DNA from: Candidatus Levyibacteriota bacterium
GTDB taxonomy: Bacteria; Patescibacteriota; Microgenomatia; Levybacterales; UBA12049
Direction: 5' to 3'
Assembly (NCBI GenBank): GCA_016432345.1
Contig: CP066685.1
Location: 432,236 to 496,235 of the forward strand
Length of the DNA: 64,000 bases
Part shown: in pieces, positions 18,220 to 37,332 of the stretch
How the letters are laid out: every line of letters starts with the position of its first letter
Numbering within the stretch: the first letter of the stretch is position 1
Position numbers and translations under genes: made by a program
The notes under the pieces: model-generated
Told to the model about the DNA's origin: nothing
Database searches by the model: none
Seen by the model: the letters and a program-made list of their open reading frames with translations, nothing else

Positions 18220-18222
18220 GAT

Positions 18223-19230: not shown

Positions 19231-20216
19231 GCAAACAAAATAACATCCAAAAAGTACTCATAACAGGAATTAGCGGTTCAGGTGGCAGCTACCTGGCCGA
19301 ATATATAGTGAATAATCATCCAAAAGTTTCGGTGCATGGAATTTCCCGCTGGCACTCAACCACAGTAGATAATTTAAGTTTAGTCCATAAAAAAGTTACT
19401 GTTCACGAAGCAGATTTAATGGATATGGGTTCCATAATTGAGGTTTTGCAAAAAGTAAAGCCTGATGCTATTTTTCATTTAGCAGCTCATGCAAACGTTA
19501 GAGCATCATTTATTACTCCCATTGCAGTATTAAATAACAATATCATCGGCACTGCTAATCTTTTTGAGGCGATTCGATTAGGCAATAATTATCCTATTAT
19601 CCAACTTTGCTCTACATCAGAAGTCTATGGACAAGTAGATCCCAAGTTTGTCCCTATTAAAGAAGATACACCAATTAAACCAGCTAGTCCCTATGCTGTG
19701 TCAAAAACAACTCAAGATTTATTGGGATGGAGTTATTTTGTAAGTTATAAGATGCCAATTATTCGTACGCGCATGTTTGCATATGTAAATCCACGTAGAG
19801 CGGATTTATTTGCCTCTGCTTTTGCCAAACAAGTAGCTTGGATCGAAGAGGGTTTGCAAGAAAAGCTCGTTCATGGAAATTTGGATTCTGTCCGAACATT
19901 TATCGATGTGCGAGATGCTATGAGAGCGTATTGGGAAGCAATAGCGCACTGCGAACCAGGAGAGGTTTATAATATTGGAGGTACAACCACGATGACAGTA
20001 GGTGAATTCCTAAAAAAATTAATCTCAATGGCTAAAGTTCCTATTCCAACTATTCTTGATCCTAACTTACTTCGTCCGGCTGATGTTACACTTCAAATTC
20101 CTTCTGTTGAAAAATTCATTAAGAAAACTGGTTGGAAACCTATTTATTCTTTTGAAGAGAGTATAAGCGAATTGTTTTCCTACTGGAGGGAGCAAGCAAA
20201 AAAGCAAAAAAAATGA
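19227..20216 (+). CDS. GDP-mannose 4,6-dehydratase / GDP-4-keto-6-deoxymannose reductase (Gmd/Rmd)-like SDR
   Basis: VLITGISGSGGSYLAEY, CSTSEVYG, YAVSK, and the C-terminal LRPADVTLQIPSVEKFIKKTGWKP typical of the Gmd/Rmd clade. Confidence 0.65.
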   Translation: MSKQNNIQKVLITGISGSGGSYLAEYIVNNHPKVSVHGISRWHSTTVDNLSLVHKKVTVHEADLMDMGSIIEVLQKVKPDAIFHLAAHANVRASFITPIAVLNNNIIGTANLFEAIRLGNNYPIIQLCSTSEVYGQVDPKFVPIKEDTPIKPASPYAVSKTTQDLLGWSYFVSYKMPIIRTRMFAYVNPRRADLFASAFAKQVAWIEEGLQEKLVHGNLDSVRTFIDVRDAMRAYWEAIAHCEPGEVYNIGGTTTMTVGEFLKKLISMAKVPIPTILDPNLLRPADVTLQIPSVEKFIKKTGWKPIYSFEESISELFSYWREQAKKQKK

Positions 20217-21151
20217 ATGCAAAAATTTACCGTTCGTTATATAGAATTAGACGCGTAGAAGAAGAGATCGGAAAAGTCTACCCAACTGATAAAATCAAAA
20301 GCCCAGTACATCTTTCAATTGGACAGGAAGCTGTATCGGTAGGGGTTTGTCTTGCTTTAGACTCTCAAGATATAGTTTTCGGCACTTACCGCGGCCATGC
20401 GCTTTACTTAGCAAAGGGTGGAAATTTAAAGAAAATGATTGCAGAACTCTACGGAAAAGCCACAGGTTGCGCTAAAGGAAAAGGAGGCTCAATGCATCTT
20501 ATTGATGTAGCAGCAGGCGTAATGGGAGAATCTGCTATTGTGGGAACAACTATTCCGCAGGCTGTTGGGTATGCCTATGCTTTAAAAATTAAGAGAAGTA
20601 GTAGCGTTGTGGTAAGTTTTTTTGGTGATGGAGCAGTGGAGGAGGGAGTTTTTCATGAAAGTATGAATTTTGCTGCACTTAAAAAACTTCCTATTATATT
20701 TATCTGTGAAAATAACTTTTATGCCATTCATACCCATCAAATGAAAAGGCAGGCAAATCCAAAAATTTGGGAAAGAGTAAAATCATACGGAATATCTTCA
20801 GAGCGAATAGTTGGTAACGATCTTTTCAAAATATACCAACATGTTGGTAATGCTGTTAAGGCTTTACGATCTGGAAAATTAGGTCCAATTTTCTTTGAAT
20901 GCACAACTTATCGGCTAAAGGAGCATGTAGGTCCAAATGAGGATTACTATTTAGGATATAGAACAAGGGAGGAGGCAGAACCTTGGTTAAAAAATGATCC
21001 TCTCCAAAAACTAGCCTTGCTTATTAAATCAAAAAACCGTCAAGAGATTGAAAAAGAAGTAGAAAAAGAAATTGTTGAGGCTTTTGCATATGCCGAAAAA
21101 AGTCCGTTTCCAAAAGGTTCTGAATTATTTACAGAGGTTTTTAAAGACTAA
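20213..21151 (+). CDS. TPP-dependent 2-oxoacid dehydrogenase E1 alpha-like subunit
   Basis: The TPP motif GDG-X26-NN (GDGAVEEGVFHESMNFAALKKLPIIFICENN, nt 20624-20716), and YRGHA and MHL upstream. Confidence 0.8.
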   Translation: MNAKIYRSLYRIRRVEEEIGKVYPTDKIKSPVHLSIGQEAVSVGVCLALDSQDIVFGTYRGHALYLAKGGNLKKMIAELYGKATGCAKGKGGSMHLIDVAAGVMGESAIVGTTIPQAVGYAYALKIKRSSSVVVSFFGDGAVEEGVFHESMNFAALKKLPIIFICENNFYAIHTHQMKRQANPKIWERVKSYGISSERIVGNDLFKIYQHVGNAVKALRSGKLGPIFFECTTYRLKEHVGPNEDYYLGYRTREEAEPWLKNDPLQKLALLIKSKNRQEIEKEVEKEIVEAFAYAEKSPFPKGSELFTEVFKD

Positions 21152-21152
21152 T

Positions 21153-22199
21153 ATGAAACGAAATCTAACTTATGTAGAAGCAATACGTGAGGCAAGCGAT
21201 CAAGAAATGGATCGAGATAAATCCGTGATTGTATTTGGTTTGGATGTAGATGATCCAAAAGCAATACAGGGCACAACCGAGGGACTTTTGAGAAAATATG
21301 GTGCAGAAAGAGTTTTTGGTACTCCACTTTCTGAAGATGCTATGACAGGCGCAGCGATAGGCATGGCGCTTGCGGGTTTTAGACCAATCCATATTCATAT
21401 CCGAATGGATTTTATTCTTCTTGCAATGAATCAGTTGATTAATATTGCCGCCAAATACAACTATATGTATGGAGGACAAATCAACATACCTTTAGTTGTG
21501 CGTTCCATGATAGGAAAAAGCTGGGGTCAGGGCGCACAACATTCCCAAAGTTTATACTCATTTTTTATGCATGTCCCGGGCTTAAAAGTGGTTGCGCCCA
21601 CAACTCCATATGATGCCAAGGGTTGTCTTATTACAGCTATAAGAGACAATAATCCTGTAATCTATATTGAACATCGTATTCTACATTTTCAAAAGGGTTA
21701 TGTTCCGAAGAAGTTATATACCGTTCCTTCAGGCAAAGCAAGAATTACCGTTAAAGGTAAAGATATTACTCTTGTTGGTATTTCCTATATGCAGATTGAG
21801 TGTCAGAGAGCCGCACGTTATCTTGAAGGTGCAGGAATTAAGGCAGAAGTTATAGATCCAATCTGGTTATCGCCATTAGATATTGATACAATCGTTGCAT
21901 CTGTTAATAAAACTGGCAGATTAATTGTTGTGGATAATGATTGGACAACTTGTGGGGCAGGCAGTGAGATTGTCTCTATGGTTTTAGAAAAATTACAAGG
22001 AAAAAGAGTTATAAAAGTCCGTCGTTTAGGTTTTGCTCCTGTAACTTGCCCTCCGACTCCGCCACTTGAAAAACTTTTTTACCCTGATGGACGTGGTATT
22101 GCATCAGTTGCTTTTGATTTAGTTAAAGGTGGACAAAGCAAGTGGGTTCCAGATGAGCAAATAGATCTTAAAGAAATTGAATTTAAAGGACCTTTTTAA
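21153..22199 (+). CDS. TPP-dependent 2-oxoacid dehydrogenase E1 beta-like subunit
   Basis: LTYVEAIREA...VFGLDV...GTPLSEDAMTGAAIGMALAGFRPI is a transketolase-like pyrimidine-binding domain. The ATG at 21153 lies 1 nt after the alpha stop. Confidence 0.8.
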   Translation: MKRNLTYVEAIREASDQEMDRDKSVIVFGLDVDDPKAIQGTTEGLLRKYGAERVFGTPLSEDAMTGAAIGMALAGFRPIHIHIRMDFILLAMNQLINIAAKYNYMYGGQINIPLVVRSMIGKSWGQGAQHSQSLYSFFMHVPGLKVVAPTTPYDAKGCLITAIRDNNPVIYIEHRILHFQKGYVPKKLYTVPSGKARITVKGKDITLVGISYMQIECQRAARYLEGAGIKAEVIDPIWLSPLDIDTIVASVNKTGRLIVVDNDWTTCGAGSEIVSMVLEKLQGKRVIKVRRLGFAPVTCPPTPPLEKLFYPDGRGIASVAFDLVKGGQSKWVPDEQIDLKEIEFKGPF

Positions 22200-23377: not shown

Positions 23378-24318
23378 AAACAAAAGTTGTAATTTGCGGC
23401 GCGAGTGGTTTTATTGGTAGAAATATAGCCGAAAAACTGGCAGAAAGAGACGATTTAGAAGTCTTTGGGACATATTTTAAAAATAAACCAGCCTTGCTTT
23501 CCAAAAAAATTAAGCTTATTCAAGCTGATTTAACTAAGATTAAAGATGTAGACAAGGTAATTATGGGGAAAGATATTATTATTCAGGCCTCTGCAGTAAC
23601 TTCCGGATCCAAAGATATTGTCACAAAACCTTATATGCATGTTACTGACAATGCAGTTATGAACAGTCTTATTTTTAGAAGCGCTTTTGAAAATAAACTA
23701 AAACATGTCGTTTTTTTTAGCTGTACAGTTATGTATCCAAATATTGATAGACCAGTAAAAGAAGAAGATTTTAACTATCAAATAACAGATAAGTATTTTG
23801 GTGTTGGCTGGACGAAAGTTTACTTAGAAAAGATGTGCGAGTTTTTCTCTAAAATTTCCAAAACTAAATATACAGCAATTAGACATTCCAATATTTATGG
23901 CCCATTCGATAAGTACGACTTAGAGCACTCACACGTCTTTGGAGCCACTATCACAAAGATCATGACAGCTAAAGACAAAATTGTAGTATGGGGAGACGGA
24001 TCTGAAGCCAGAGATTTATTATATGTGTCAGATCTGGTAGATTTTGTAGAATTGATACTTAAGCACCAAAAAACTCCCTTCGAACTGGTCAATGTCGGAT
24101 TTGGTTCTGCTGTTTCGGTTGCAAATTTAGTTAAGAAGATTATTGAAGTCTCGGGTAAAAAAATAAAAATTGAATTTGATATATCAAAACCTACTATTAA
24201 GTTTAGCCTTTCTTTAAATCTTGATAAAGCTAAGAAGGTGTATAATTGGAAACCGAAGGTAACTATTGAAGAAGGTATTAAAAAAACAATTAGTTGGTAT
24301 CAACAAAATATTTCATGA
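23374..24318 (+). CDS. NAD(P)-dependent nucleotide-sugar epimerase/reductase (extended SDR)
   Basis: VVICGASGFIGRNIAEKL and YLEK (YxxxK context VGWTKVYLEKM). ATGA overlaps at both ends. Confidence 0.7.
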   Translation: MKTKVVICGASGFIGRNIAEKLAERDDLEVFGTYFKNKPALLSKKIKLIQADLTKIKDVDKVIMGKDIIIQASAVTSGSKDIVTKPYMHVTDNAVMNSLIFRSAFENKLKHVVFFSCTVMYPNIDRPVKEEDFNYQITDKYFGVGWTKVYLEKMCEFFSKISKTKYTAIRHSNIYGPFDKYDLEHSHVFGATITKIMTAKDKIVVWGDGSEARDLLYVSDLVDFVELILKHQKTPFELVNVGFGSAVSVANLVKKIIEVSGKKIKIEFDISKPTIKFSLSLNLDKAKKVYNWKPKVTIEEGIKKTISWYQQNIS

Positions 24319-25298
24319 ATTTTTATAAAGGTAAAAAAGTACTTGTTACAGGTGGGACAGGTTTGATAGGCAGACCATTGGTGGAAATGTTGGTCGAAGC
24401 AGGCGCCAAGGTAGTCGTGGTTTCTCTTGATGACCCCAGTCGGGCGCCCAAAGGCGTCAAATTTATCCGTGCCGATTTGCGGGAGTTTAGCAACTGTATG
24501 CAGGCATGTAAATATCAGGAGATTGTTTTTCATTTGGCAGGAATTAAAGGTTCACCAAAAATGACTGCCCAACAACCTGCCAGTTTTTTTGTTCCCACTA
24601 TTACTTTTAATACTAATATGATGGAGGCAGCAAGAAGGCAAAATCTTAAAAGATTTTTGTATACAAGTACCATTGGGGTATATTCACCAGCTGAAATTTT
24701 CCATGAAGATGATGTCTGGAAAACCTTCCCATCTGTTAATGACCGTTTCGCCGGATGGGCAAAAAGAATGGGTGAACTACAGGCACAGGCATATAAAATC
24801 GAATATGATTGGGATAAAATATCAATAGTCAGGCCGGCCAATGTGTATGGCCCATTTGATAATTTTGATCCTGACACAGCAATGGTTATTCCTTCGCTTA
24901 TCCACAGAGCTCTAAGTGGAGAAAATCCTTTAACAGTCTGGGGTGATGGTTCAGCAATTCGAGATTTTATTTATTCTAAAGATGTAGCCCGCGGCATGAT
25001 GTTAGCTATTGAAAAAGGAATTAATGTTCCTGTAAATTTAGGCAGCGGTGCTGGAGTAACTATCAAAGAGATAGCAGAGGTTATTGCAAAAAATGTACCT
25101 GGCGGACCTATTAAGATTATTTGGGATAAAGATAAGCCTAAAGGAGATGCCAAAAGACTTATGGATATGAAAAGGGCTAAAAAACTATTAGGATTTAAAC
25201 CCATATATTCTTTGGAACAAGGAATAAAAGAAACAATTGCATGGTATCTTAATAATAAAGATCTTCTAAATAAAAGGTATAATGTTTTTCGTGAATAG
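24315..25298 (+). CDS. NAD(P)-dependent nucleotide-sugar epimerase/reductase (extended SDR)
   Basis: KVLVTGGTGLIGRPLVEML and TSTIGVYS. The start at 24315 forms an ATGA overlap with the upstream stop. Confidence 0.7.
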   Translation: MNFYKGKKVLVTGGTGLIGRPLVEMLVEAGAKVVVVSLDDPSRAPKGVKFIRADLREFSNCMQACKYQEIVFHLAGIKGSPKMTAQQPASFFVPTITFNTNMMEAARRQNLKRFLYTSTIGVYSPAEIFHEDDVWKTFPSVNDRFAGWAKRMGELQAQAYKIEYDWDKISIVRPANVYGPFDNFDPDTAMVIPSLIHRALSGENPLTVWGDGSAIRDFIYSKDVARGMMLAIEKGINVPVNLGSGAGVTIKEIAEVIAKNVPGGPIKIIWDKDKPKGDAKRLMDMKRAKKLLGFKPIYSLEQGIKETIAWYLNNKDLLNKRYNVFRE

Positions 25299-26046
25299 CT
25301 TTTTAATTACTGGTACTTCTAGCGGGCTTGGTAAATATCTTTATGCAAATTTAGGCGGAATTTCCTTAAATAGGGAAAAAATTCAAAAAAATGGCGCAGA
25401 GATAATCATTCATTGTGCTTTTAACTCGGAAAATAATCCTAAGGATTCAGATCAATACTATAACGATAATGTTTTATTAACCAAAAGATTGACCAAAATT
25501 CCCCATACAAAGTTTATATTTGTTTCTTCGGTTGATGTATATCCAAAAAATTCAAATAGACATACAGAGAGTGAAATTATAGACATGCATAATGTAGAGA
25601 GTTTATATGCCAAAACAAAACTTTTATCTGAAGATTTAGTCAAAAAGAATTGCCCTAATTTTTTAATTCTAAGATGCAGCGCTCTGTTAGGAAAAGACTC
25701 CAGAAGAAATAGCTTAATTAAAATCATTGAGGAAAAAAAACCTACTCTAACACTTTCTGGCGACTCCATATCCAATTATATTTTGCACGAAGATGTTTTA
25801 AGTTTTATTAAGGCGGCTTCAGAAAAAGATTTACAAGGAATATATAATCTGGCATCCTCTAAAAATATAACTCTAAAACAAGTTACAGATTTAGTTAAGA
25901 AAAAAGTTACTTTTGGAGATTATGTATATAATGTAGGAAACATAGATAATAGTAAAACAGTTTCTATCTCCAAAGTTTTTAAAAAAACTTCACGAGAGAT
26001 AATTACTGAATTCGTTAGCCATAACACAGTAAACCCAACAAGTTGA
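25282..26046 (+). CDS. Short RmlD-like NAD(P)-dependent reductase
   Basis: FLITGTSSGLGKYL, VSSVDVYP and YAKTK (YxxxK). 254 aa. Confidence 0.55.
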   Translation: MFFVNSFLITGTSSGLGKYLYANLGGISLNREKIQKNGAEIIIHCAFNSENNPKDSDQYYNDNVLLTKRLTKIPHTKFIFVSSVDVYPKNSNRHTESEIIDMHNVESLYAKTKLLSEDLVKKNCPNFLILRCSALLGKDSRRNSLIKIIEEKKPTLTLSGDSISNYILHEDVLSFIKAASEKDLQGIYNLASSKNITLKQVTDLVKKKVTFGDYVYNVGNIDNSKTVSISKVFKKTSREIITEFVSHNTVNPTS

Positions 26047-26071
26047 AATAGCTTTTATCTTATAGTATAAT
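26043..26071 (+). promoter_or_regulatory. Sigma70-type promoter TTGAAA-N17-TATAAT, ATG 6 nt downstream (leaderless configuration)
   Basis: -35 at 26043-26048 (overlaps the upstream TGA stop), -10 at 26066-26071, ATG at 26078. Confidence 0.6.
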
Positions 26072-26077
26072 ATAAGC

Positions 26078-27127
26078 ATGCTAGAACGCTTAGCGCAACT
26101 TGGAAGAGCTCTCCAAGCTGCTGGTAATCTTGATATACGTGTTAACAGAAGAGGTTTTCTTAAAGGTGGATTATCGGTTGTAGGTGTATTTACACTGTCT
26201 GGGTGTGAGCCAGCACCTTCTACATCAGCTCCTTCCCAAGCTACTATAGAAATAGGACAACCTGAAATAGAGTTGCGTGATATCACAAGCAGTTTTAATC
26301 ATGAAAATCTTTCTGATCCAGAACCCAGAAGTAAAGTAGTAGAATTAACTGCCTCAATAACGGAAAAACTCCAGTTAAACAGTTTAACAAAAGAACAAAT
26401 GGTTGCATCTATCGTTTGGGTAGAAGATCCCCTTCCACGAGCGCGTGAGAAAGCGCAAAGAAAAAAAACTTCTATAGAGAGTGAGCTTGCAAGAATGAGA
26501 ACGTGGTCTGCTGAGACGGATAATGGCAAAGTATACGTATACATACATGCTTCTACTCTTCAAAAATCTTACTGGGAGTTGCAACCACAATTACACTGGA
26601 ATCCGCTTAAAGAACTCGTGCACGCGCTTGACCATGAATGGAAGCACCTCGAAGTTAGAGAAAGAACAGATGCACGCATGGATACACTCCTTGATCCAGA
26701 GAATGCTTTTTCTGGTAAAGTTATTACTGGCTTTAGAATGAATGGCACTAATGCATCAGAATTTCCGAAATCCGTATATGCCCAGCTTGATGAAGGAATA
26801 ACAGATTATCTTGCCACACAATCAGTACTATCATATTTTGGAGCAGTGGTGAATTCGGCAGATGTTGCAACAATGGTTGATTATTTCCCAATAATTTTTA
26901 AAGAAGCTGGAATTCTTCCACAGACAATACAACAACTGCATCAAGAATCAAAATTTTATGAATTTTTGATTTTGTTAGCCAAAATTAAGGGAGTAGAAGG
27001 GTCTATCATAACTGAGAGGCAACAAGTTCTGGCTGGACTTGCTGTTGTAAATGCACTTGTTAATAACGATAAGCCAACGATAGAAAAATACATTCAAGCT
27101 ATCCGTGAGAATAAAGCTCATCATTAG
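26078..27127 (+). CDS. Predicted secreted lipoprotein with HEXXH motif (function unknown)
   Basis: The N-terminus NRRGFLKGGLSVVGVFTLSGC is Tat-like RR plus a lipobox Cys. HEWKH is at nt 26633-26647. GC is visibly higher than in the neighbours. It has its own TTGAAA-N17-TATAAT promoter. Confidence 0.5.
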   Translation: MLERLAQLGRALQAAGNLDIRVNRRGFLKGGLSVVGVFTLSGCEPAPSTSAPSQATIEIGQPEIELRDITSSFNHENLSDPEPRSKVVELTASITEKLQLNSLTKEQMVASIVWVEDPLPRAREKAQRKKTSIESELARMRTWSAETDNGKVYVYIHASTLQKSYWELQPQLHWNPLKELVHALDHEWKHLEVRERTDARMDTLLDPENAFSGKVITGFRMNGTNASEFPKSVYAQLDEGITDYLATQSVLSYFGAVVNSADVATMVDYFPIIFKEAGILPQTIQQLHQESKFYEFLILLAKIKGVEGSIITERQQVLAGLAVVNALVNNDKPTIEKYIQAIRENKAHH

Positions 27128-27665
27128 TGTGTGTTTTCAAAATTGTGTTTACTGCAGAATATAAGTCATCAACTACAAAATCAGGATTAACTATATTTTC
27201 TTTTTCCACCATCGTTCCATAGCCGGTACGTACCAAAAAGGTAGTTGCTCCCATTTTTTGCCCCAACTCAATATCGATTGCCTTATCGCCAATCACAAAA
27301 CTCTCTTGTGGATTAAAATCATGGTCTTTTAAGGCTTGCTCTATAAGACCTAATTTTGGTTTCCTGCAATGACAATTATCTTCTGCTTTGTGAGGGCAAA
27401 AATAAATACCATCGAGAATAACACCTTCTGCAGCTAGTAAATCTAGCATTCTTTTATGAATTAATTTTAGATCATCAAGATTAAAGTAACCTCTACCAAC
27501 CCCTGCTTGATTAGTTACTACCAGAAGTCCAAATCCCAACTCTCTTAATTTTTTAAGTCCTATGGCTGCATTGGAAATCAGTTCAACTTGGTTATGATGA
27601 GATAAGTAATTGCGTTCTGTAATTATAGTGCCATCGCGGTCAAGTATTACAAATTTTCTTTTCAT
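27099..27665 (-). CDS. gmhB: D,D-heptose 1,7-bisphosphate phosphatase (HAD-IIIA)
   Basis: FVILDRDGTII, VVTNQAGVGRGYF, CPH...CHCRKPKLG and GDKAIDIELG. Confidence 0.8.
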   Translation of the reverse strand: MKRKFVILDRDGTIITERNYLSHHNQVELISNAAIGLKKLRELGFGLLVVTNQAGVGRGYFNLDDLKLIHKRMLDLLAAEGVILDGIYFCPHKAEDNCHCRKPKLGLIEQALKDHDFNPQESFVIGDKAIDIELGQKMGATTFLVRTGYGTMVEKENIVNPDFVVDDLYSAVNTILKTHTNDELYSHG

Positions 27666-28369
27666 ATTGAGCCAAAAAAACTTTGGGCTTCTTGATAAGA
27701 CTTAGGTGTACCAATATCTATAAATTTTCCTTTGGCCTCAAATCCATAAAAATCTTTTCCAATTAATGTTGGAAACAATTCTTTCTCGAATGAGACTGCT
27801 TTATTTTTGGGGATTTTCAAAAGCAGTGGTTTTTTAAATAAATAGATGCCACTGTTGATAAGTCCTGTTCCAACCTTTCCATGTTTTTCTTGAAACGAAG
27901 TAATTTTATTGTTTTTATCCAACACAACCTGTCCGTATCTATCAAGATTAGAGACCCTAGTTAATAAAATTGAAGCTTTAGATTTTTTTTGGAGGTGAAA
28001 TTGCCAAAACTTTTTTAGATCAAAGTCTAAATAAGAATCGCCATTGGTAACTAAAATATCCTCTGTTTTTATAAAAGGTAAAGCTAATCTTATGGCGCCG
28101 GCTGTATCCAATTTTGAATTTTCTTGAGAGTAATAAATGGACAGATTGCCATATGTATTGCCAAATTCTTTTTTGACTTGTTCGCCCAAGTGTCCTGTGC
28201 AAATGATAACTTTCTTAATGCCTGTTTTTTGTAACTTATCTAATATATACTTTAGGAAGGGATAATTTTTTACGGTAGCTAAAACTTTCTGCTTTCTTTT
28301 TATTGCGGAGCTAAGTCTTGTTCCTAATCCTCCTGCTAAAATTGCCGCAGTGATATCTTCTAAATCCAT
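27662..28369 (-). CDS. hddC: Sugar-1-phosphate nucleotidyltransferase, heptose-1-phosphate guanylyltransferase-like
   Basis: ILAGGLGTRL and VTNGDSYLD. 235 aa, overlapping gmhB by 4 nt. Confidence 0.65.
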   Translation of the reverse strand: MDLEDITAAILAGGLGTRLSSAIKRKQKVLATVKNYPFLKYILDKLQKTGIKKVIICTGHLGEQVKKEFGNTYGNLSIYYSQENSKLDTAGAIRLALPFIKTEDILVTNGDSYLDFDLKKFWQFHLQKKSKASILLTRVSNLDRYGQVVLDKNNKITSFQEKHGKVGTGLINSGIYLFKKPLLLKIPKNKAVSFEKELFPTLIGKDFYGFEAKGKFIDIGTPKSYQEAQSFFGSI

Positions 28370-29302
28370 CTAAATATTTTTGAATTCCAAACGCCTAATA
28401 AGTTGATAGCCTTTTATAAGTTCTTTTATTCCTTCATCTAGTGTTTTTTTTGCTTCAAATCCAGCAGTTTTGAGCCTTTGGCTTAAGACAATATAGTTTC
28501 TTTTGTCAGGGTCTGAGTTTATTTCTGCAAAATCAATATAAAATTTAGGGAGATGCTGTTTGATTTTTCCTGCTAACTCTTCTTTTGTTAGATTTTCAGA
28601 ATCTAAGCCAAGATTATATGCTTTTCCAGTCATTTTCTTGTGATTTTCAATGGAGAAGATAAAACAATCAATAACATCGCGAATATGAACAAAATTTCTT
28701 TTAAAATTTTTTTCAAAAAGCACAATATATCCATCAGTTAGGGCGGTATATACAAAGTGGTTCACCAGTAAATCTAGTCTTAATCGTGGAGACATGCCAA
28801 AAACCGAAGCAAGCCTAAGGGTAATGGTATTTTTTGATGATAACAACTCTATTTCTGCGTCAGTCTTAGTTTTTCCATAGAGCGTTACTGGTTTAAGCGG
28901 TGTTTCTTCTGTGCAAAAATTTCCGCAGGAGGGGGTACCATATCCATTATTTGTCATAGGAAAAACGACTAATTGATCTTTGCTTCGTAACTTGTTAAGT
29001 AGTTTTATAGAGTCTAAATTTGTCGTTGTAGCAAGATAGGGATCACTGTCGCAAGCAGAAGTTCCGACAATTGCTGCAAGGGGAACTACAACATCAGCAT
29101 TTTTAAGAAGTTTACTCATTAAGCTTTTGTCTCGGACATCTCCAAAAACAAAATCAAAATTGGGATTGTTACATAAATGGAATAGGCTTTTTTGTCGATA
29201 TATGAGGTTATCTATTGCTGTAACGTTATAGCCTTTATCCAAGAGAATCTCGCAGAGAACTGATCCTAAATAACCTGCGCCCCCCGTGACCAAAATATTC
29301 AT
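28370..29302 (-). CDS. NAD-dependent nucleotide-sugar epimerase/dehydratase (extended SDR)
   Basis: MNILVTGGAGYLGSVL and YGKTK (YxxxK). It is the operon head, with a TTGAAT-N17-TACAAT promoter 6 nt upstream of the ATG. Confidence 0.75.
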   Translation of the reverse strand: MNILVTGGAGYLGSVLCEILLDKGYNVTAIDNLIYRQKSLFHLCNNPNFDFVFGDVRDKSLMSKLLKNADVVVPLAAIVGTSACDSDPYLATTTNLDSIKLLNKLRSKDQLVVFPMTNNGYGTPSCGNFCTEETPLKPVTLYGKTKTDAEIELLSSKNTITLRLASVFGMSPRLRLDLLVNHFVYTALTDGYIVLFEKNFKRNFVHIRDVIDCFIFSIENHKKMTGKAYNLGLDSENLTKEELAGKIKQHLPKFYIDFAEINSDPDKRNYIVLSQRLKTAGFEAKKTLDEGIKELIKGYQLIRRLEFKNI

Positions 29303-29308
29303 TGGTCA

Positions 29309-29337
29309 ATTGTAGCTCAATTATTAAATAAATTCAA
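29309..29337 (-). promoter_or_regulatory. Sigma70-type promoter TTGAAT-N17-TACAAT, ATG 6 nt downstream (leaderless configuration)
   Basis: Minus strand: -35 at 29337-29332, -10 at 29314-29309, ATG at 29302. Confidence 0.6.
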
Positions 29338-29341
29338 TAAC

Positions 29342-29370
29342 TTGAAACTTGATACAATTTTTGATATAAT
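29342..29370 (+). promoter_or_regulatory. Sigma70-type promoter TTGAAA-N17-(TGa)TATAAT, ATG 7 nt downstream (leaderless configuration)
   Basis: -35 at 29342-29347, extended -10 TG at 29362-29363, -10 at 29365-29370, ATG at 29378. The -35 lies 4 nt from the divergent -35. Confidence 0.65.
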
Positions 29371-29377
29371 CTAAGTT

Positions 29378-30634
29378 ATGGAAGGGGCTATCACTCCCAA
29401 AGCTTTATTGTATACACGATTCGCTCGTGAAGAGCGCAAACTTCCTCCGCTTATTGAAGATGCGCGTCAAAACCCGCTTGTAAAAGCAGAGACCGCAGAT
29501 GGAACAGTATATGTAAAAGATGTTGCGATCCTCACAGCACGTCAACACATGTTGGTAATTCCAGACCAGCCAAGCGGAGTGATTATGGGAAGTGTACAGG
29601 AAGTACCTTTGCCTTTGCTTGGAGATACATTTCAGGCTGCCGGTGATATCGCAAAATATTATGAATCTCAACCTGGAATAGAACAGGTGGATATGATGAT
29701 TAATTTTTCTACTGATCCTCTCAAAAGAATTCAAACCCAGCCAAATTTGCATGTGCATATACTTGGATATGGTCCAGATGATATACAAAAACCTACAAAT
29801 AGAAGAGAAATGAGGGCAAATCCAGAGCTGCGTCCTCAAGAAAGTGAGCCACTCAACAGTGTAATTTATGACTTGTTAGATCAGCAAGTTTTTCCTTCTG
29901 TGGCAACAGACCCCGCTTTTAAGCAGTTATTTGAGCGGACTACTGATGAACATGGAGCAATAACGTATAGGCTTATTTATGGAGATGCGACATTTTCGGA
30001 TTCTGACTTTCCCCGTGTAATGCAAGAAATTCATAAAAGAAGTCAAGAAGTATATAATCAACTCGCATCTGTATATTTTGAAATGGATAAAGACGGAAGA
30101 TTTGTAGAAGAAGTTGATGGACGTAATAAACTTTTATCACAAGAAAAACGGATAAATAATGTAGCTATATATATTTCAGAGCATCCAAGTCTTTCATCAA
30201 CAAGTCAAAGATGGCTTCAGTTTTTGGCAAATCATGCAACAGATTTAGAAACTGTTATAGTCAGCAAAGAACAAGCAAAAGGAAGTGAGTTATCGCCGCA
30301 AGAGAGAAAGCACGTAATTAATAGATTCGCTGCCATAAAAGACTTATCATATGGCTTAACATTTTCAGGAATAAAAATTGATGATAAGTATGATTGGCGC
30401 ATGGGATATGATCCTATTGTTTTTTCGACTAGAGGTACCTTAGCGGCTTCCAGAGGCATACCAAAAGCGGGCATAATGGATTCAACTATGATATATGATC
30501 CACAGACGTTAGAAATTGTTAAAGCCTCTGAAAGAAAGTTAGGGGAATATTTAGTAGAAAAAGGCAAGCAAGACAGTAGTCTTCCTTATCAACCAGGTCC
30601 CCAACTTTATTCAGAATCAATTAATCCAGGATAG
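29378..30634 (+). CDS. HIT-like N-terminal domain protein with an unassigned ~270-aa C-terminal region
   Basis: RQHMLVIPDQP plus MMINFSTDPLKRIQTQPNLHVHILGY resembles the HIT fold with an N-x-H-x-H-x-x triad variant (HVH at nt 29750-29758). GC is higher than in flanking genes. Confidence 0.45.
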   Translation: MEGAITPKALLYTRFAREERKLPPLIEDARQNPLVKAETADGTVYVKDVAILTARQHMLVIPDQPSGVIMGSVQEVPLPLLGDTFQAAGDIAKYYESQPGIEQVDMMINFSTDPLKRIQTQPNLHVHILGYGPDDIQKPTNRREMRANPELRPQESEPLNSVIYDLLDQQVFPSVATDPAFKQLFERTTDEHGAITYRLIYGDATFSDSDFPRVMQEIHKRSQEVYNQLASVYFEMDKDGRFVEEVDGRNKLLSQEKRINNVAIYISEHPSLSSTSQRWLQFLANHATDLETVIVSKEQAKGSELSPQERKHVINRFAAIKDLSYGLTFSGIKIDDKYDWRMGYDPIVFSTRGTLAASRGIPKAGIMDSTMIYDPQTLEIVKASERKLGEYLVEKGKQDSSLPYQPGPQLYSESINPG

Positions 30635-30697
30635 CAGGCAAGTGTAGATATAGAAGCAGAGAAATTATATTATTCCGAGTTTGCTAGGGCTCAAGAA

Positions 30698-31333
30698 ATG
30701 GTCTTAAACGATAGACCTACCGAACCAGTTGATGCTGCTTTATTTTTTGGACGCTCCTGGTTTGATGCCGAAAAAACTGGAGTATATCAATTAATGAAAG
30801 ACTTTTATGACCAAGGGATGATTAAATATATAGTTCTTTATGGTGGAGATGGACAAAAATTCGGAGAAACTGTTCCAGATGTTGCCGCACCAGGCAAAAG
30901 ATTTGCCAGAGATCGTCTGGTCAAAATGGGTGTGCCTAATGAAAGTATTCTTGACAGTGAATTAGAAGATCAAACTGAAAACAATACTTTAGAAGAAGGA
31001 AGGGGGATGTTAAACTTAGTTAGATCTCGCGGTTGGAGTAGAGTTGTTGCTGTGGCAAATGAACATCAGTTGTTACGTGCTACACTGGGACTTATTCCGA
31101 TGATAAATAATTCGGAAGGAGAACAAATTGATCTTTGGACAGCAGCTCCTCATGATACAAATTGGAATAAGCGAGTAAGGGGGGCACAAGGAGAACATTT
31201 TGGTCCAAGATCTGATCATATAATTTTAGAAAATAACAGAGTTCGTCAGTATCAAGAAAAAGGCGATCTCGCTTCTTTTGAGAGGTATCATGCCTATATA
31301 CAAAATAGAGATCAAAGAATAGGAATTCGTTAA
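30698..31333 (+). CDS. DUF218 / YdcF-like domain protein
   Basis: YIVLYGGDG...RDRLVKMGVPNESILDSELEDQTENNTLEEGRGMLNLVRSRGWSRVVAVANEHQLLRA matches the DUF218 pattern (GG..G, GVP...I, NT.E, HQ..RA). Confidence 0.5.
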   Translation: MVLNDRPTEPVDAALFFGRSWFDAEKTGVYQLMKDFYDQGMIKYIVLYGGDGQKFGETVPDVAAPGKRFARDRLVKMGVPNESILDSELEDQTENNTLEEGRGMLNLVRSRGWSRVVAVANEHQLLRATLGLIPMINNSEGEQIDLWTAAPHDTNWNKRVRGAQGEHFGPRSDHIILENNRVRQYQEKGDLASFERYHAYIQNRDQRIGIR

Positions 31334-31342
31334 GTCTTATTT

Positions 31343-32602
31343 TTAGACAATTTTAGGCTCTGGGATTGGGATAATAAATTTTCCACCTTTTTCTTTAAAC
31401 CATTTCTCGTTTTCCATAATATTATCGGCATAATTCCAGGCAGTAATTATTATGAAATCCGGAGTTTTTATTTTTAATACATCTGGAGCAACTATTGGAA
31501 TATGCGTTCCTGGTGTAAACTTCCCCTGTTTGGAAGAGGCACTGTCGGTAATATAATCAATCACATCCGGACCAATATCACAATATTGCAGTAGTGTAGT
31601 TGCTTTAGCAGATGCGCCATATGCTACAATTTTTTTACCCTTTTTCTTTAAATCCAAAAGCATGTTTGTTAATTGTTTTTTAACAATAGGGGGCCTTTTG
31701 GCAAACTTTTTATAAGTTGAAAGTTTATCCAAACCAAATCTCTTTTCATTTTCCAAAAATTTATTAACGGCTTTTGCAATAGTAAGTGAAGAACGAGAAT
31801 GCGTTGCAAAAACCATAATTCCTCCTCCATGAGTATCAGTATGAATAATATCAATAATTTTCATTCTATACATTTTTAGAAGATATGTAAGAGGGGTAAT
31901 AGCGTGGAAACAAATATGCTCGTGATAAATATTATCAAACTCATTGTGAGTTAGTAGATCTAAAAGATATTGCACTTCAAAAACAAAAACTCCTTTCTCA
32001 TCTAAAAATTCTTTTACCCCTTCAAAGATATTATGTAAGGCATCGGTATGAGCTAAGGTATTATTTGAAGTAATAATACCAGCTTTTCCATATTTTTTTA
32101 TAAGGTTTTCTACTTTATCTTTACCAAAAAAGTCTGCTATAGTTTCAATACCTTGCTCATTTGCTATTTTGGCAATATTTTTTGCTGGATCTATTCCTAA
32201 AACTCTGGCTCCTAATCTTTTAAAAGGTTTTAGTAAAACACCATCGTTGCTACCAATATCCACAACTAACTGTTTTGATTGAGAAGGGAAGCGTGTAAAA
32301 ACCTCTTTTGCATACTCCTCGAAATGCTTAACAAGCATGGGAGAAGTAGATGAGAAGTAAGCATAGTCAGAGTAGATATGACTCCTATCAACTATATGAA
32401 GTAACTGTGTTAAGTTACAATTATGGCAGAAATATACCTCTAGAGGAGCTTTAAATTCTTTTTTGTTGAGCTGCGCTTTAGTAAGATAAGAATTAGCCGG
32501 TGCTTGAATTTCTAATGATAAATATTTGCTTAATTTTTTGCTTCCGCAGATAAGACATTTGTTGTTTAACAGATACAGTTTTTTGTTTTTAGGCGATGCC
32601 AT
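31343..32602 (-). CDS. NDP-hexose C-methyltransferase (TylCIII-like three-domain type)
   Basis: The zinc-ribbon-like CLICGS...CHNC, SAM motif VVDIGSNDGVLL and the C-terminal domain IVAYGASAKATT...FIIITAWNY. It is a paralog of 11324-12457. Confidence 0.7.
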   Translation of the reverse strand: MASPKNKKLYLLNNKCLICGSKKLSKYLSLEIQAPANSYLTKAQLNKKEFKAPLEVYFCHNCNLTQLLHIVDRSHIYSDYAYFSSTSPMLVKHFEEYAKEVFTRFPSQSKQLVVDIGSNDGVLLKPFKRLGARVLGIDPAKNIAKIANEQGIETIADFFGKDKVENLIKKYGKAGIITSNNTLAHTDALHNIFEGVKEFLDEKGVFVFEVQYLLDLLTHNEFDNIYHEHICFHAITPLTYLLKMYRMKIIDIIHTDTHGGGIMVFATHSRSSLTIAKAVNKFLENEKRFGLDKLSTYKKFAKRPPIVKKQLTNMLLDLKKKGKKIVAYGASAKATTLLQYCDIGPDVIDYITDSASSKQGKFTPGTHIPIVAPDVLKIKTPDFIIITAWNYADNIMENEKWFKEKGGKFIIPIPEPKIV

Positions 32603-33518
32603 ATTCTTTGACGTATTTTACATAATCTATAATCCCTTTATCTATACTCATTTTGGGAAACCAACCAAGTACCTTTTTTGCCTTCCCATTGCTCATTGTT
32701 CCCCTACGGGGTCTGTCATGTATATCTTTAACTTCATACTCAAAAGTAAAATGTTTTTTTAAGATATTCACAAATTCAATCAAGTTAATTGCGTTATTAC
32801 CGCTAATATGAAAAACTTCTTTTGCGGGAGCTTTTAAAGCTACCTCTATAATTCCCGCCACTAAATCTTTAACATAAATAAAATCCATCATAATATTTTT
32901 ATTAATCCAAAAGTTTTTTCCTTTTAAAATTTTACCTACAATAATATTACAAGCTCTTCCGTTCATATCTGCAAATCCATATATATTAGTTGTTCTTATA
33001 ATATTCCAATTGTTCAGCTGGGCTTTAATCAAAAATTCGCAACTGGCTTTCGATACCCCATAAGGAGTTTTTGGAAGAAGTCGGTAGTCCTCGTCAATAG
33101 TATCTATACAATCTCCATATGCCGAAATTGATGACATAAAAATGAATTTTTTAAGTTTAGTTTTTTTGACAGTTTCTATTATTTTATAAGTTAAAGCAAC
33201 GTCGTCTGTCAGTTGTTTTAGGCTGATTTCAATATCATCAGTTTTTTCCAGGGGAATTCCTGCCAGATGTATCAAAATGTCCGGCTTTTCTTTTTTTAAA
33301 ATTTTTTCCCCCCCATCCTCAAATTTTTTATGATAAATTTTTGCTCCTTTAAGCAAGTATTCTTTTTTGAAATTGTTTATTTTTTTGATGCGGTTTTTGT
33401 CTGAATCTGAATAATAAATAGAAGAATCAATAATCACCACAGCATGCCCTCTTGATATTAGCTCGCGGGTAAGCCACGAACCTACAAATCCCCCTCCACC
33501 AATTATTAAATATTTCAT
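32589..33518 (-). CDS. NAD-dependent nucleotide-sugar epimerase/dehydratase (extended SDR)
   Basis: MKYLIIGGGGFVGSWL, MSSISAYG and YGVSK. Confidence 0.75.
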   Translation of the reverse strand: MKYLIIGGGGFVGSWLTRELISRGHAVVIIDSSIYYSDSDKNRIKKINNFKKEYLLKGAKIYHKKFEDGGEKILKKEKPDILIHLAGIPLEKTDDIEISLKQLTDDVALTYKIIETVKKTKLKKFIFMSSISAYGDCIDTIDEDYRLLPKTPYGVSKASCEFLIKAQLNNWNIIRTTNIYGFADMNGRACNIIVGKILKGKNFWINKNIMMDFIYVKDLVAGIIEVALKAPAKEVFHISGNNAINLIEFVNILKKHFTFEYEVKDIHDRPRRGTMSNGKAKKVLGWFPKMSIDKGIIDYVKYVKEYGIA

Positions 33519-34532: not shown

Positions 34533-36953
34533 ATGAAAAAACTCTTTAGATTTTCAAAACCAAAAATTTTCGTTTCTCTTATTTGTATCGTATTATTTAT
34601 TCTTCCTTTTTTTTGGCTTCATACTAACGAATTAGAACTGGGTGGAGATAGTAGTAGGCTTTACATGTATGACCCCGATTCATTTATGCAATCGGATAGT
34701 TTATACAGCATTGAACCCGGCGGTATTGGAGCCTTGAGATCAGATCAAGCCATGCTGCCATTTTTATTTCTATTAAAGTTTTTTTACTTTATTTTCCATT
34801 CATCCTACATTGTCATTTGTCTTTTAAATTCTCTTAAGTTGGTGGGAGCATTTTTATTTATGTATTTAATCGTTGTTGAAATTCTTAAAAAACATGCGCA
34901 GGAAAACAAAATGCTTCTGGTGGAGATTGCAGGAATACTAGCAGGGCTTTTTTATACATTTTCCCCAAGCGGTGGTGAATCCATGCAATTTTCCCTGATT
35001 GTACATAATCAAGTATTTTTAAATCCGATGGTTTTTTATCTGCTCCTGCGATTCTTGATTTCGCAAAAAAATAAATATTTATGGTTTGCCATCTTAACAA
35101 CACTTATTTTTTCACCTAATTTTACACTGGTTGTTCCCTCTGTTTACGCTTTTTTTCCATTGGCGTTTATATTCCTTGGATTATATGTAACTTTCTGCCT
35201 TGGTAAACCATTGCCTTTGAGAAAAATATTTGGGGGTATTATTTTATTTCTGGGCCTACATGCTTTTCATCTAATACCTACTATTATGCTTATTTTTGAC
35301 CCGGGTAATATCTTAAATACGCGAATATTTGATAGAAGTTCAATTCAGAATGTAGGGGTAGATTATTTCAGCTCGGTAGTGCTTCATTCAATGGTTACGA
35401 AGAGCTTTTTCTATAGCTACTCAATTCCTCAAACACAATGGACTGTATTTATCGCACCATTAAGTATTATTTTAGGATTCCTGATAAGCCGGGCGCGCGA
35501 AAAAACTTTTACGCTAATCGCCTTATTTTTTTTCATAACAACCTTTTTACAATCGGCAAATATTACATATCTTGGCAATGCTATGTATAAAATGCTGTTT
35601 TATATTCCCGGTTTTTCTATGTTTCGAAACTTTCCAGGGTGGTTTATGTACGTGCAAACTTTTTTTTATGCATTGCTTTTAGGATATGCATTTTTTTTAA
35701 TCTTTTCAAAGTTAAAAGAAAGAATTGTTTATATCTCTTCAATTTTAATCATAGGAGTGTTTGTTTTTAACAGCTGGAAGTTTATAAGCGGACAAATTCT
35801 TAGGCAGCCCCATAGAGGAACAAACAATGTGAGCACGATTATACAAATGGATCCTGCTTATGAAAAGATACTGTCATATTTACGAAACCTGCCTGATGAC
35901 GGTAAAATTTTTGACTTTCCTCTTACAGAATTTGGCTATCAAGTAGTTCCAGGTTTAAACAGAGGCGCGTATATTGGTCCTTCTCCTATTTCTTTTCTCA
36001 CTAATCGGAGTGACTTCGCGGGGAACCCAATTCTTGACCCATTTTCAGCTACACTTCATAATCTAATTAAAGAAAAGAATATAGATGGCATCAAAAGATT
36101 ATTTGGATTGTTAAATGTAAAATATATTTTTTACAATTCAGATCCCAGAGCTTACGAAGAGTTTTTTCCCGATGTTCCCAATACTGTGCTTCTTAAACTG
36201 TTGCCAGATTCTGCTTCTCTTGCAAATTTAGTTGATAAAATCATAGGAGAAAAAGTAGTAAATTTTGGAACATATAACCTTTATTACGCAGATAAAAATT
36301 ATTACTTGCCTCATTTTTTTGTCCTAACTTCAGTTATTCCATACGATGGCAAAAAAATTGATCTCATTGGACAAAATACATCATTTTTTGTTGATACCAA
36401 ACTTACCGATCCAAGAATTGGCTATATTGATTCACAACTGTGTACACAAGTGTTATCTTCTTGTAAAGAGGGAGAGATAATATACGAGAGCGATATCCCC
36501 ACAATTACGTATCAGAAAATCAATCCGACAAAGTATAAAGTTATAGTTTCCAATGCTAATGCCCCTTTTTTTCTTATATTCTCTGATAAATTTCATACGA
36601 GTTGGAAGGCCTATATGACAAATCAAGAAGCTGAAAAGCTAAAAATACAAGGTAGATATTTTGACGGTAGAATACAAGAATCTTATCACGAAAATATCTT
36701 TTTAAATAATAAGACATTCGAGACACTGAATATGAAAAGTTTGCCAGAAGCGCAACATTTTACGGCCAATGGATACGCCAATGCCTGGTATATTACTCCA
36801 GGAGATTTCGATGGAGAAAGTAATTATGAAATTATTGTTGAGATGACGCAACAAAGAGCAGCTTACATAGGACTGATTATCTCTTTTATAAGTATTATAA
36901 TTTTTATGATCTATGGAGTAAAAATTTTGAAAAACAGCGCATTGCACCAATAG
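34533..36953 (+). CDS. Giant-family GT-C-like polytopic membrane protein, short form (paralog 2)
   Basis: 806 aa with PFFWLHTNELELGGDSSRLYMYDP, HNQVFLNPMVFYLLL, IFSPNF, PGFSMFRNF, LPDDGKIFDFPLTEFGYQ, NVKYIFYNSDP, INPTKYKV, FHTSWKA and ANGYANAW, plus a terminal TM helix. Confidence 0.7.
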   Translation: MKKLFRFSKPKIFVSLICIVLFILPFFWLHTNELELGGDSSRLYMYDPDSFMQSDSLYSIEPGGIGALRSDQAMLPFLFLLKFFYFIFHSSYIVICLLNSLKLVGAFLFMYLIVVEILKKHAQENKMLLVEIAGILAGLFYTFSPSGGESMQFSLIVHNQVFLNPMVFYLLLRFLISQKNKYLWFAILTTLIFSPNFTLVVPSVYAFFPLAFIFLGLYVTFCLGKPLPLRKIFGGIILFLGLHAFHLIPTIMLIFDPGNILNTRIFDRSSIQNVGVDYFSSVVLHSMVTKSFFYSYSIPQTQWTVFIAPLSIILGFLISRAREKTFTLIALFFFITTFLQSANITYLGNAMYKMLFYIPGFSMFRNFPGWFMYVQTFFYALLLGYAFFLIFSKLKERIVYISSILIIGVFVFNSWKFISGQILRQPHRGTNNVSTIIQMDPAYEKILSYLRNLPDDGKIFDFPLTEFGYQVVPGLNRGAYIGPSPISFLTNRSDFAGNPILDPFSATLHNLIKEKNIDGIKRLFGLLNVKYIFYNSDPRAYEEFFPDVPNTVLLKLLPDSASLANLVDKIIGEKVVNFGTYNLYYADKNYYLPHFFVLTSVIPYDGKKIDLIGQNTSFFVDTKLTDPRIGYIDSQLCTQVLSSCKEGEIIYESDIPTITYQKINPTKYKVIVSNANAPFFLIFSDKFHTSWKAYMTNQEAEKLKIQGRYFDGRIQESYHENIFLNNKTFETLNMKSLPEAQHFTANGYANAWYITPGDFDGESNYEIIVEMTQQRAAYIGLIISFISIIIFMIYGVKILKNSALHQ

Positions 36954-36978: not shown

Positions 36979-37332
36979 ATGTCTGGCGCAATACAAAAAC
37001 AAGGTTTAAGCAGAAACGTTATTAGATTTTTAGCCCTTTCCCCAATTATTTTGCTGATCCTCGGGGATGCTCTTCTTTTCCAACAAAATTCAGATTGGCG
37101 GACATTTCCGATTTTAATCTTTTATATATTCCTTATAATTCGTTATAAAATTGCTGCGAATACAACGTTTCTTATTTGTTTGGCGCTTTTCTTATTTATG
37201 TATATTCATTATATTTTTTCCGATCCTAAAGTATTTGCGACTCGATATCCTCTTGCTCCTTTTGGAGAAAAAATGGCTGAGTGGCTTTATCTTTTTTTGG
37301 TAATTGGCGTTATACAAAAATGGCAAGAATAA
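36979..37332 (+). CDS. Small four-helix membrane protein, family member A (unknown function)
   Basis: 117 aa with four hydrophobic segments. Its C-terminal tail EKMAEWLYLFLVIGVIQKWQE is homologous to the tails of 40987 and 41301. The last 13 nt overlap the ATG of the next giant gene. A TTGCAC-N17-TATAAT promoter ends 8 nt upstream. Confidence 0.7.
   Translation: MSGAIQKQGLSRNVIRFLALSPIILLILGDALLFQQNSDWRTFPILIFYIFLIIRYKIAANTTFLICLALFLFMYIHYIFSDPKVFATRYPLAPFGEKMAEWLYLFLVIGVIQKWQE

Follow-up and report, generated by a model that had tools for sequence, protein, structure and literature searches.

A probable protein-level basis for the raised GC content of three genes in a Levyibacteriota glycan island

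The window analysed in this study, a 64-kb stretch of DNA with a GC (guanine plus cytosine) content of 33.9 %, derives from a metagenome-assembled genome (MAG) of Candidatus Levyibacteriota, an uncultured groundwater bacterium of the candidate phyla radiation (CPR; Microgenomates). Annotation of its 57 open reading frames (ORFs) of at least 100 aa with Pfam and NCBIfam revealed that nearly the entire stretch constitutes one nucleotide-sugar/glycan island, in which three genes, here named A, B, and C, lie within six consecutive genes (Table 1). Their products are identical to hypothetical proteins encoded on a 762,565-bp contig of a Levyibacteriota MAG. The original prediction had described them as three higher-GC genes of unrelated function, namely a HEXXH lipoprotein, a HIT-like protein, and a DUF218 protein, being either recent acquisitions or strongly constrained core genes around which AT-rich glycan genes were assembled. 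By comparing A, B, and C with the other 54 ORFs and with related loci, we find that their GC bumps are very probably a protein-level effect and not a nucleotide-level signature of foreign DNA.

The GC bump is real, its clustering is unlikely by chance, and its size is about 5 points rather than 10-14. A, B, and C are the top three of the 57 ORFs in GC content and stand at the edge of the distribution (z 2.1, 1.9, and 1.7, respectively; mean 0.342, sd 0.025), as other ORFs reach 0.380-0.384, three of them with z 1.56-1.70. The comparison with the other 54 ORFs gave a Mann-Whitney p of 0.0001, and three random genes of 57 would fall within six consecutive genes with a probability of 0.018. Windows of 300 nt average 0.387 in the three genes versus 0.337 (sd 0.034) elsewhere, where 4.5 % of them have a GC of at least 0.40 and the maximum is 0.463. 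The earlier count of 42-47 % GC in single 60-nt lines of these genes was thus right in direction and too high in size: the line means are 0.392 in A and 0.385 in B and C together (gene GC 0.384-0.393), compared with 0.341 in the interleaved heptose/SDR (short-chain dehydrogenase/reductase) block, and 29-34 % of the lines inside A, B, and C have a GC of at least 0.42. The lowest single lines elsewhere in the window have 0.13-0.20.

The GC excess is confined to codon positions 1 and 2, and there is no compositional sign of a recent import. GC at the first position (GC1) amounts to 0.535-0.549 in A, B, and C versus 0.426 in the other 54 ORFs, and GC at the second position (GC2) to 0.375-0.380 versus 0.324. 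The third-position values (GC3; Table 1) compare with 0.267 in the other ORFs (57-ORF mean 0.266), and the direction of this difference is towards lower GC3 in the three genes (Mann-Whitney p = 0.10). When the GC content was predicted from the amino-acid sequence with leave-one-out, window-wide synonymous codon frequencies, we obtained 0.398, 0.397, and 0.411 for A, B, and C versus 0.394, 0.388, and 0.386 observed; because the prediction matches or slightly exceeds the observation, the excess is wholly explained by amino-acid content. Synonymous codon usage is likewise ordinary (z 1.18, 0.36, and -1.12). The strongest signal is the amino-acid make-up itself: the fraction of F, Y, M, I, N, and K residues (FYMINK) in the three proteins is the lowest of all 57 ORFs (z -2.5 to -3.0), followed by an ORF with 0.295. 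All three are rich in A, R, Q, and E and poor in K, I, F, and Y; a clear enrichment of P is seen in B only, and a shortage of N in A and B, with none in C. The proposed flavour, rich in A/R/Q/P/E and poor in K/I/N, hence holds except for these two residues. Set against the gene-to-gene variance of the window, total GC lies at its upper edge, nearly within it, and GC3 and codon usage lie fully within it. The view of a recent acquisition therefore finds no support in the composition, with native GC3, native synonymous usage, and a GC content as expected from the proteins.

Related loci (numbered with the prefix L) were found by exact-protein look-up and pattern scans. In the AT-rich relatives (L005, L008, L010, L012, L013, L014, and L020-L022; locus GC 0.32-0.38), homologs of A, B, and C have GC 0.38-0.43, GC1 0.51-0.57, GC3 0.24-0.32, and FYMINK 0.22-0.30, while their neighbours have GC of about 0.28-0.42 (mostly below 0.37) and FYMINK mostly of 0.31-0.47. 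In a Daviesbacteria locus of 39 % GC, the C homolog does not stand out, and in a Parcubacteria genome of 58 % GC, it resembles its neighbours (GC 0.61, GC3 0.71, FYMINK 0.20). GC3 of the homologs tracks the host in every locus, and their protein composition shifts far less with host GC than that of the neighbours. Since the offset recurs in every AT-rich relative and is absent in GC-richer hosts, the composition is a property of the protein families, and the pattern is characteristic of families under compositional constraint and not of a recent import.

These families are small, comprising 2, 8, and 21 protein clusters for A, B, and C, respectively, in 5.8 billion, and relatives of C occur in 6 of 185,579 species representatives. 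All named relatives belong to the CPR (Levyibacteriota, Daviesbacteria, Microgenomates, or Parcubacteria), with no non-CPR relative of A, B, or C among them, so that the taxonomic comparison yields no distant donor and again lends no support to a recent acquisition. The alternative offered earlier, strongly constrained core genes, captures the resistance of their composition to the AT drift of the neighbours, but such rare and patchy genes are not core. Several MAG records (TPA_asm) with the same synteny and 32-38 % GC are titled "uncultured Gammaproteobacteria bacterium" (L018, L020, L021, and L022; CAYMUB010000035.1, CAZVJU010000037.1, CAZCNP010000002.1, and CAZAZW010000001.1); these titles are doubtful and perhaps placeholders or mislabels, because the C-methyltransferase encoded there is 73-80 % identical to that of the Levyibacteriota window. 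Furthermore, Pfam-less hypothetical proteins beside B homologs (L007:325-1715; L008:6-971) display GC1 of 0.53-0.55, native GC3, and FYMINK of 0.20-0.26, and hence these genomes encode low-FYMINK orphans other than A, B, and C.

With a threshold of 1e-3, none of the three proteins matches a Pfam or NCBIfam model. The N-terminus of protein A (RRGFLKGGLSVVGVFTLSGC) contains a twin-arginine motif, a hydrophobic region, and a lipobox Cys (RRGFLKGG...LSGC). Pfam TAT_signal is matched by A with E = 0.061 and by a relative with 4.5e-4, and the relative P0038 was named [quoted passage not shown] by NCBI. A k-mer-seeded search returned one other cluster only, while a full HMMER scan of 1.84 billion representatives (50 % identity level) returned 20 relatives with 22-30 % identity, the family thus counting about 21 representatives at that level; the named ones stem from Daviesbacteria and Microgenomates. 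Within the HEXXH motif, at least 90 % of 22 family sequences (20-30 % identity) keep H186 and E187, and H190 is invariant, as is E239 further downstream, which from this conservation is a candidate third zinc ligand. The assignment of A as an HEXXH lipoprotein is supported by the conserved HEXXH, the twin-arginine motif, and the lipobox, and we infer a putative Tat-exported, membrane-anchored, extracytoplasmic zinc metallopeptidase. A shares these features, together with the invariant downstream Glu, with zincin (HEXXH) lipoprotein metallopeptidases, but differs from them in that neither A nor its profile significantly matches peptidase models of Pfam and NCBIfam or a solved structure among PDB sequences. 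In groundwater contigs, a homolog with 83 % identity is found at this position as well, between a truncated SDR and a convergent ORF (GmhB in the window), and A keeps its position in close relatives. A distant Daviesbacteria relative is located between the secE-nusG-L11-L1 operon and a PBP1 gene.

Protein B appears to comprise a divergent HIT domain in its N-terminal ~130 residues and a C-terminal region of ~280 aa without a known family. Its score against Pfam HIT (PF01230) is 14.2 bits (E = 0.071) and hence below the gathering threshold of 21.5; within the family, six of eight members match Pfam HIT at E up to 1 (best 6.5e-5), and two of eight match DcpS_C at 3e-5. The histidine-triad motif reads N123-L-H125-V-H127-I-L(-G), in which the first His of the triad is replaced by Asn, whereas the second and third are present in all seven sequences spanning the region. 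By hhalign, residues 51-131 of B align with residues 33-107 of E. coli HinT in the canonical register, pairing HMLVIPD with HILIIPN and NLHVHILGY with HIHMHLLGG, and in this register the nucleophile and general-acid histidines are retained. The AF2 model of B (pLDDT 71, pTM 0.77) found two-lobed HIT enzymes of the GalT branch as top Foldseek matches (6k9z, 6k5z, 2h39, 5in3, and 1hxp), which were weak (E at least 3.5e-3, TM 0.18-0.25). We did not adopt a GalT-branch placement, as B has HVHIL rather than HxHxQ, hhalign against E. coli GalT gave a probability of 0.2 %, and the structural support is weak. The B profile retrieved nothing significant from all PDB chains, and a metagenome scan found no further B loci. 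Within the HIT superfamily (HinT/Fhit and GalT branches), B thus aligns canonically to Pfam HIT and HinT with two catalytic histidines retained, but departs in the Asn at the first His and in the ~280 C-terminal residues. The HIT-like character suggested earlier accordingly receives weak but consistent support from the family matches and the HinT register, even though the window protein itself stays under the Pfam threshold, and B is a putative HIT-type nucleotide hydrolase or transferase.

Protein C yields a confident model with a Rossmann-like alpha/beta fold (pLDDT 85, pTM 0.85), whose top 50 structural matches in the PDB are generic Rossmann-like/HUP proteins, such as argininosuccinate synthetase, USP, PPAT, and SDRs. 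The C profile retrieved nothing significant from all PDB chains, and C matches no Pfam model at E up to 10. The assignment to DUF218 could not be upheld: not one of 21 family members gave a match to Pfam DUF218 at E up to 1, none of the top 50 structures is DUF218/YdcF by description, and hhalign of the C family against E. coli YdcF, SanA, ElyC, and YgjQ gave a weak probability of 36.6 % over 21 columns. What C has in common with the DUF218/YdcF-SanA-ElyC proteins is its size, the Rossmann-like fold, and this 21-column match over a "G-x-V-x-x-I-x-x-G" strand.

C is associated with a sugar C-methyltransferase/SDR gene pair in eight of nine loci, spanning Microgenomates-type loci and one Parcubacteria genome. 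The C-methyltransferase accompanies C in the window, L005, L010, L012, L020, L021, L022, and L023, usually together with the SDR; it is 73-82 % identical in relatives with C or B beside it, and the pair as a whole is conserved at 65-82 % identity across related MAGs. In the Parcubacteria locus L023, the order is C, SDR, C-methyltransferase, with a methyltransferase of 39 % identity. The lone exception is Daviesbacteria, where C is found among 6PGD, G6PD, PGI, and EamA genes. Because of this adjacency, C is a conserved partner of the sugar-modifying module, and we infer that it acts as an accessory protein of an NDP-sugar C-methyltransferase/SDR module. Hence, the claim of three genes of unrelated function is wrong for C, and it is doubtful for B since a HIT domain implies a nucleotide-handling enzyme. 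Methyltransf_13 and Methyltransf_14 domains are typical of sugar C-methyltransferases (TylC3/TcaB9-type) in branched-sugar and deoxysugar pathways. Like the NDP-hexose C-methyltransferase and ketoreductase modules, the window enzyme has these domains and is paired with an SDR, while no partner resembling C is known from the described NDP-hexose C-methyltransferase pathways.

The slot beside the C-methyltransferase/SDR pair is variable among relatives and holds B and C, C alone, a frameshifted C, or B and an unrelated 230-aa ORF. L012, the closest C-bearing relative, has SDR, C, and C-methyltransferase without B; in L008, an 88 %-identical B is followed by the unrelated 230-aa ORF and then the C-methyltransferase; L007 carries a B of 40 % identity, surrounded by hypothetical genes; and in L005, C is frameshifted (two tblastn segments in different frames). 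C keeps its position in close relatives. In DNA alignments, the SDR-proximal half of the spacer 5' of B is ~95 % identical to the spacer 5' of C in L012. The window and L008 share the -10 box and start of B (TGATATAATCTAnGTTATGGAAGG), and as this block is nearly identical in both, the B promoter travels with B. Thus, B behaves as a cassette with its own promoter in a variable slot, which reflects shuffling within the lineage and not import from a GC-richer donor. The comparison of synteny confirmed presence/absence variation for B, but not for A and C, which stay in place in close relatives.

At the B/C junction, we found an apparent scar (Table 1) made up of the last seven B codons (SESINPG), a TAG stop at 30632-30634, and 21 sense codons. 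B and C share the same reading frame, and the 21 codons are ~80 % identical to an N-terminal coding extension of C in relatives, from which the last seven B codons derive, too; the original C start and the original B stop were both lost (window 30590-30700 compared with L012:1723-1860, L008:2240-2290, and L013:1631-1810). In L013, a TAA directly precedes the same internal Met. The junction is not an assembly error, because its sequence is identical in the independent assemblies L001 and L002. The B-TAG-C arrangement might be such a junction scar or, possibly, a case of read-through or coupling. We further entertain, with considerable doubt, a broader scenario in which C would found an undescribed enzyme or accessory family making a branched or methylated sugar in CPR bacteria together with the C-methyltransferase and SDR, B would represent a new HIT nucleotide-sugar cassette in the same slot, and the in-frame B/C arrangement, like the similar TAA-ATG split in L013, could reflect occasional read-through fusion or translational coupling instead of a mere scar.

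Two of the three genes had been credited with their own TTGAAA promoters, and two such sites exist, before A and B (Table 1), each matching 11 of 12 consensus positions; the total of promoter-like matches in the region equals the shuffle expectation. Their architecture is common across the window. Of the 21 ORFs preceded by a gap of 25 nt or more, 11 carry a -10-like hexamer that lies 4-10 nt upstream of the start codon, with no Shine-Dalgarno sequence, against a background of 7 % (P ~8e-6), a conservative and rough figure, as the gap calculation mislabels several overlapping ORFs as leading. This spacing suggests that, in this Levyibacteriota genome, unit-leading genes normally give rise to leaderless mRNAs, and the A transcript is probably leaderless, too. 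Since the A and B promoters follow the normal leaderless-type architecture of the window, they are no sign of special or foreign genes. A literature search on leaderless transcription in CPR and on Levyibacteria glycosylation retrieved nothing directly relevant.

How could a protein-level effect generate the apparent mosaic? According to our model, A, B, and C are soluble or exported proteins of three small CPR-restricted families with few F, Y, M, I, N, and K and many A, R, E, and Q residues (plus G and D in B and C). Such a make-up lifts GC1 by ~12 and GC2 by ~5 points, while GC3 and synonymous choice follow the host. The surrounding glycosyltransferases, methyltransferases, SDRs, and membrane proteins would have drifted further to AT-rich codons, giving the impression of a mosaic. 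Purifying selection, rather than recent arrival, would then keep the composition of A, B, and C off the AT drift.

Several observations weigh against this explanation and are best considered together with its rivals. GC1 and GC2 of the three genes correspond to a genome of ~41-45 % GC and their GC3 to one of ~34 % (Muto-Osawa/Lawrence-Ochman regressions), which is also how an old, synonymously ameliorated import would look. Moreover, the families are rare and patchy, with one C relative in a 58 %-GC Parcubacteria genome, so that an ancient transfer within the CPR may have occurred, and B is clearly mobile at the local scale, with the content of the slot beside the C-methyltransferase differing among relatives. 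Horizontal acquisition long ago from a donor with ~41-45 % GC, with fully ameliorated synonymous sites and nonsynonymous sites retaining the donor bias, would account for these features; yet homologs with 40-88 % identity occur in several independent AT-rich hosts with the same composition and host-like GC3, from which it follows that any transfer predates the divergence of these lineages and is hence not recent and indistinguishable from constraint. As, in addition, no relative outside the CPR was found and codon usage is native, we consider such an acquisition improbable. Mere chance, that is, ordinary gene-to-gene variance placing three high-GC genes together, is more improbable still: the modest z values of 1.7-2.1, the three other ORFs with z 1.56-1.70, and the 4.5 % of outside 300-nt windows at or above 0.40 would be compatible with it, but A, B, and C are top in GC and bottom in FYMINK alike, their clustering has a P of 0.018, and the recurrence of the same offset in independent relatives largely refutes it.

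A further point against the protein-level explanation concerns the baseline, which consists of glycan-island genes only, without housekeeping genes, so that the outlier may be A, B, and C or the island itself. The three genes might accordingly be normal for the genome, and the surrounding island unusually rich in AT and FYMINK, a frequent trait of polysaccharide clusters. In line with this, GC1 and GC2 of the other 54 ORFs imply a genome of 21-26 % GC and their GC3 one of ~35 % (by the same regressions), the conserved soluble enzymes of the window (E1/transketolase-like, SIS, and hexapeptide transferase) have GC of 0.37-0.38 and FYMINK of 0.30-0.32, housekeeping genes in Daviesbacteria loci have FYMINK of ~0.27-0.35, and the low-FYMINK hypothetical proteins mentioned above flank B homologs in L007 and L008. 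FYMINK of A, B, and C, however, falls below even the most conserved window enzymes, and we regard an outlying island as possible though rather unlikely. It complements the protein-level explanation rather than excluding it.

The GC effect itself is textbook. As in the amino-acid-driven GC heterogeneity described by Muto and Osawa (GARP/FYMINK), A, B, and C combine a GC1/GC2 excess that tracks FYMINK/GARP content with unchanged GC3 and codon usage; here, three such proteins fall within six genes of an AT-shifted island, which exaggerates the contrast. With ameliorated genomic islands (Lawrence and Ochman model), the locus shares the local contrast, the patchy families, and the variable slot content, but GC3, codon usage, and tRNA genes provide no such signature, the higher-GC genes are a minority inside the island, and the relatives are all CPR. 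The locus adds, modestly, three undescribed CPR families, the link between C and the C-methyltransferase, the B/C scar, and the leaderless architecture. Where genomes are AT-rich and evolve fast, as in CPR bacteria, bumps of 4-5 points in total GC can come from protein composition alone, and they should not be taken for horizontal transfer without a deviation in GC3 or codon usage as well. By its strong guilt-by-association link to the C-methyltransferase module, C is a possible missing component of CPR surface-glycan biosynthesis.

Table 1. Genes, sites, and other features of the 64-kb window (window coordinates)
Feature	Position	Strand	Remarks
Gene A, 349 aa, HYV37_02450	26078..27127	+	GC 0.393, GC3 0.251, FYMINK 0.238
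Gene B, 418 aa, HYV37_02470	29378..30634	+	GC 0.388, GC3 0.255, FYMINK 0.258
Gene C, 211 aa, HYV37_02475	30698..31333	+	GC 0.384, GC3 0.226, FYMINK 0.251
B/C junction scar	30612..30697	+	homologous to 5' coding extension of C in relatives
Promoter-like site TTGAAA-17-TATAAT	26043..26071	+	-10 ends 6 nt before ATG of A
Promoter-like site TTGAAA-17-TATAAT	29342..29370	+	TG upstream of -10; -10 ends 7 nt before ATG of B
Sugar C-methyltransferase (Methyltransf_13, Methyltransf_23, Methyltransf_14)	31343..32602	-	convergent with C
SDR (4,6-dehydratase/ketoreductase type)	32589..33518	-	co-conserved with C-methyltransferase
GmhB-type D-glycero-D-manno-heptose-1,7-bisphosphate phosphatase (HAD-IIIA)	27099..27665	-	interleaved; window-typical composition
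HddC-like sugar-1-phosphate nucleotidyltransferase	27662..28369	-	interleaved; window-typical composition
SDR epimerase/dehydratase	28370..29302	-	directly adjoins C homolog in L012, no B between
SDR-like ORF	25282-26046		matches Epimerase model positions 48-240 only; overlaps end of full-length SDR 24294-25298
Starts with -10-like hexamer	14078(-), 15218(-), 15268, 17617, 26078, 29302(-), 29378, 34453(-), 36979, 49321, 52234		
Heptose-type modules (three)	2-1940; 17617-19230; 27099-28369		
Split transketolase/E1-like pairs (two)	8637-10390; 20213-22199		
Sugar C-methyltransferases (two)	11324-12457; 31343-32602		
Large Pfam-less ORFs (six)	15268-17577; 34533-36953; 37281-40994; 41594-45367; 45364-47304; 56176-59358		

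The remainder of the island encodes GHMP kinases, SIS isomerases, HAD phosphatases, NDP-sugar transferases, many SDR epimerases/dehydratases, two DegT aminotransferases, GT2/GT4 glycosyltransferases, and several giant ORFs without domains, besides the modules listed in Table 1; at 64 kb, it is a considerable commitment for a CPR bacterium with a small genome. The window contains neither tRNA genes nor Rfam elements, and no integrase is among the Pfam matches of its ORFs; flanking repeats were not searched for. Six large ORFs of 769, 806, 1237, 1257, 646, and 1060 aa, located among the glycosyltransferases, lack a Pfam match at 1e-5 and may encode undescribed membrane or surface proteins or polymerases. 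Upstream of A, the SDR-like ORF apparently misses the N-terminal dinucleotide-binding part and may be a truncated or split SDR, the short form of which is retained in a relative (L014:216-1013). At its other end, gene A overlaps the convergent GmhB gene, so that the 3' ends of both share 29 nt (27099-27127).

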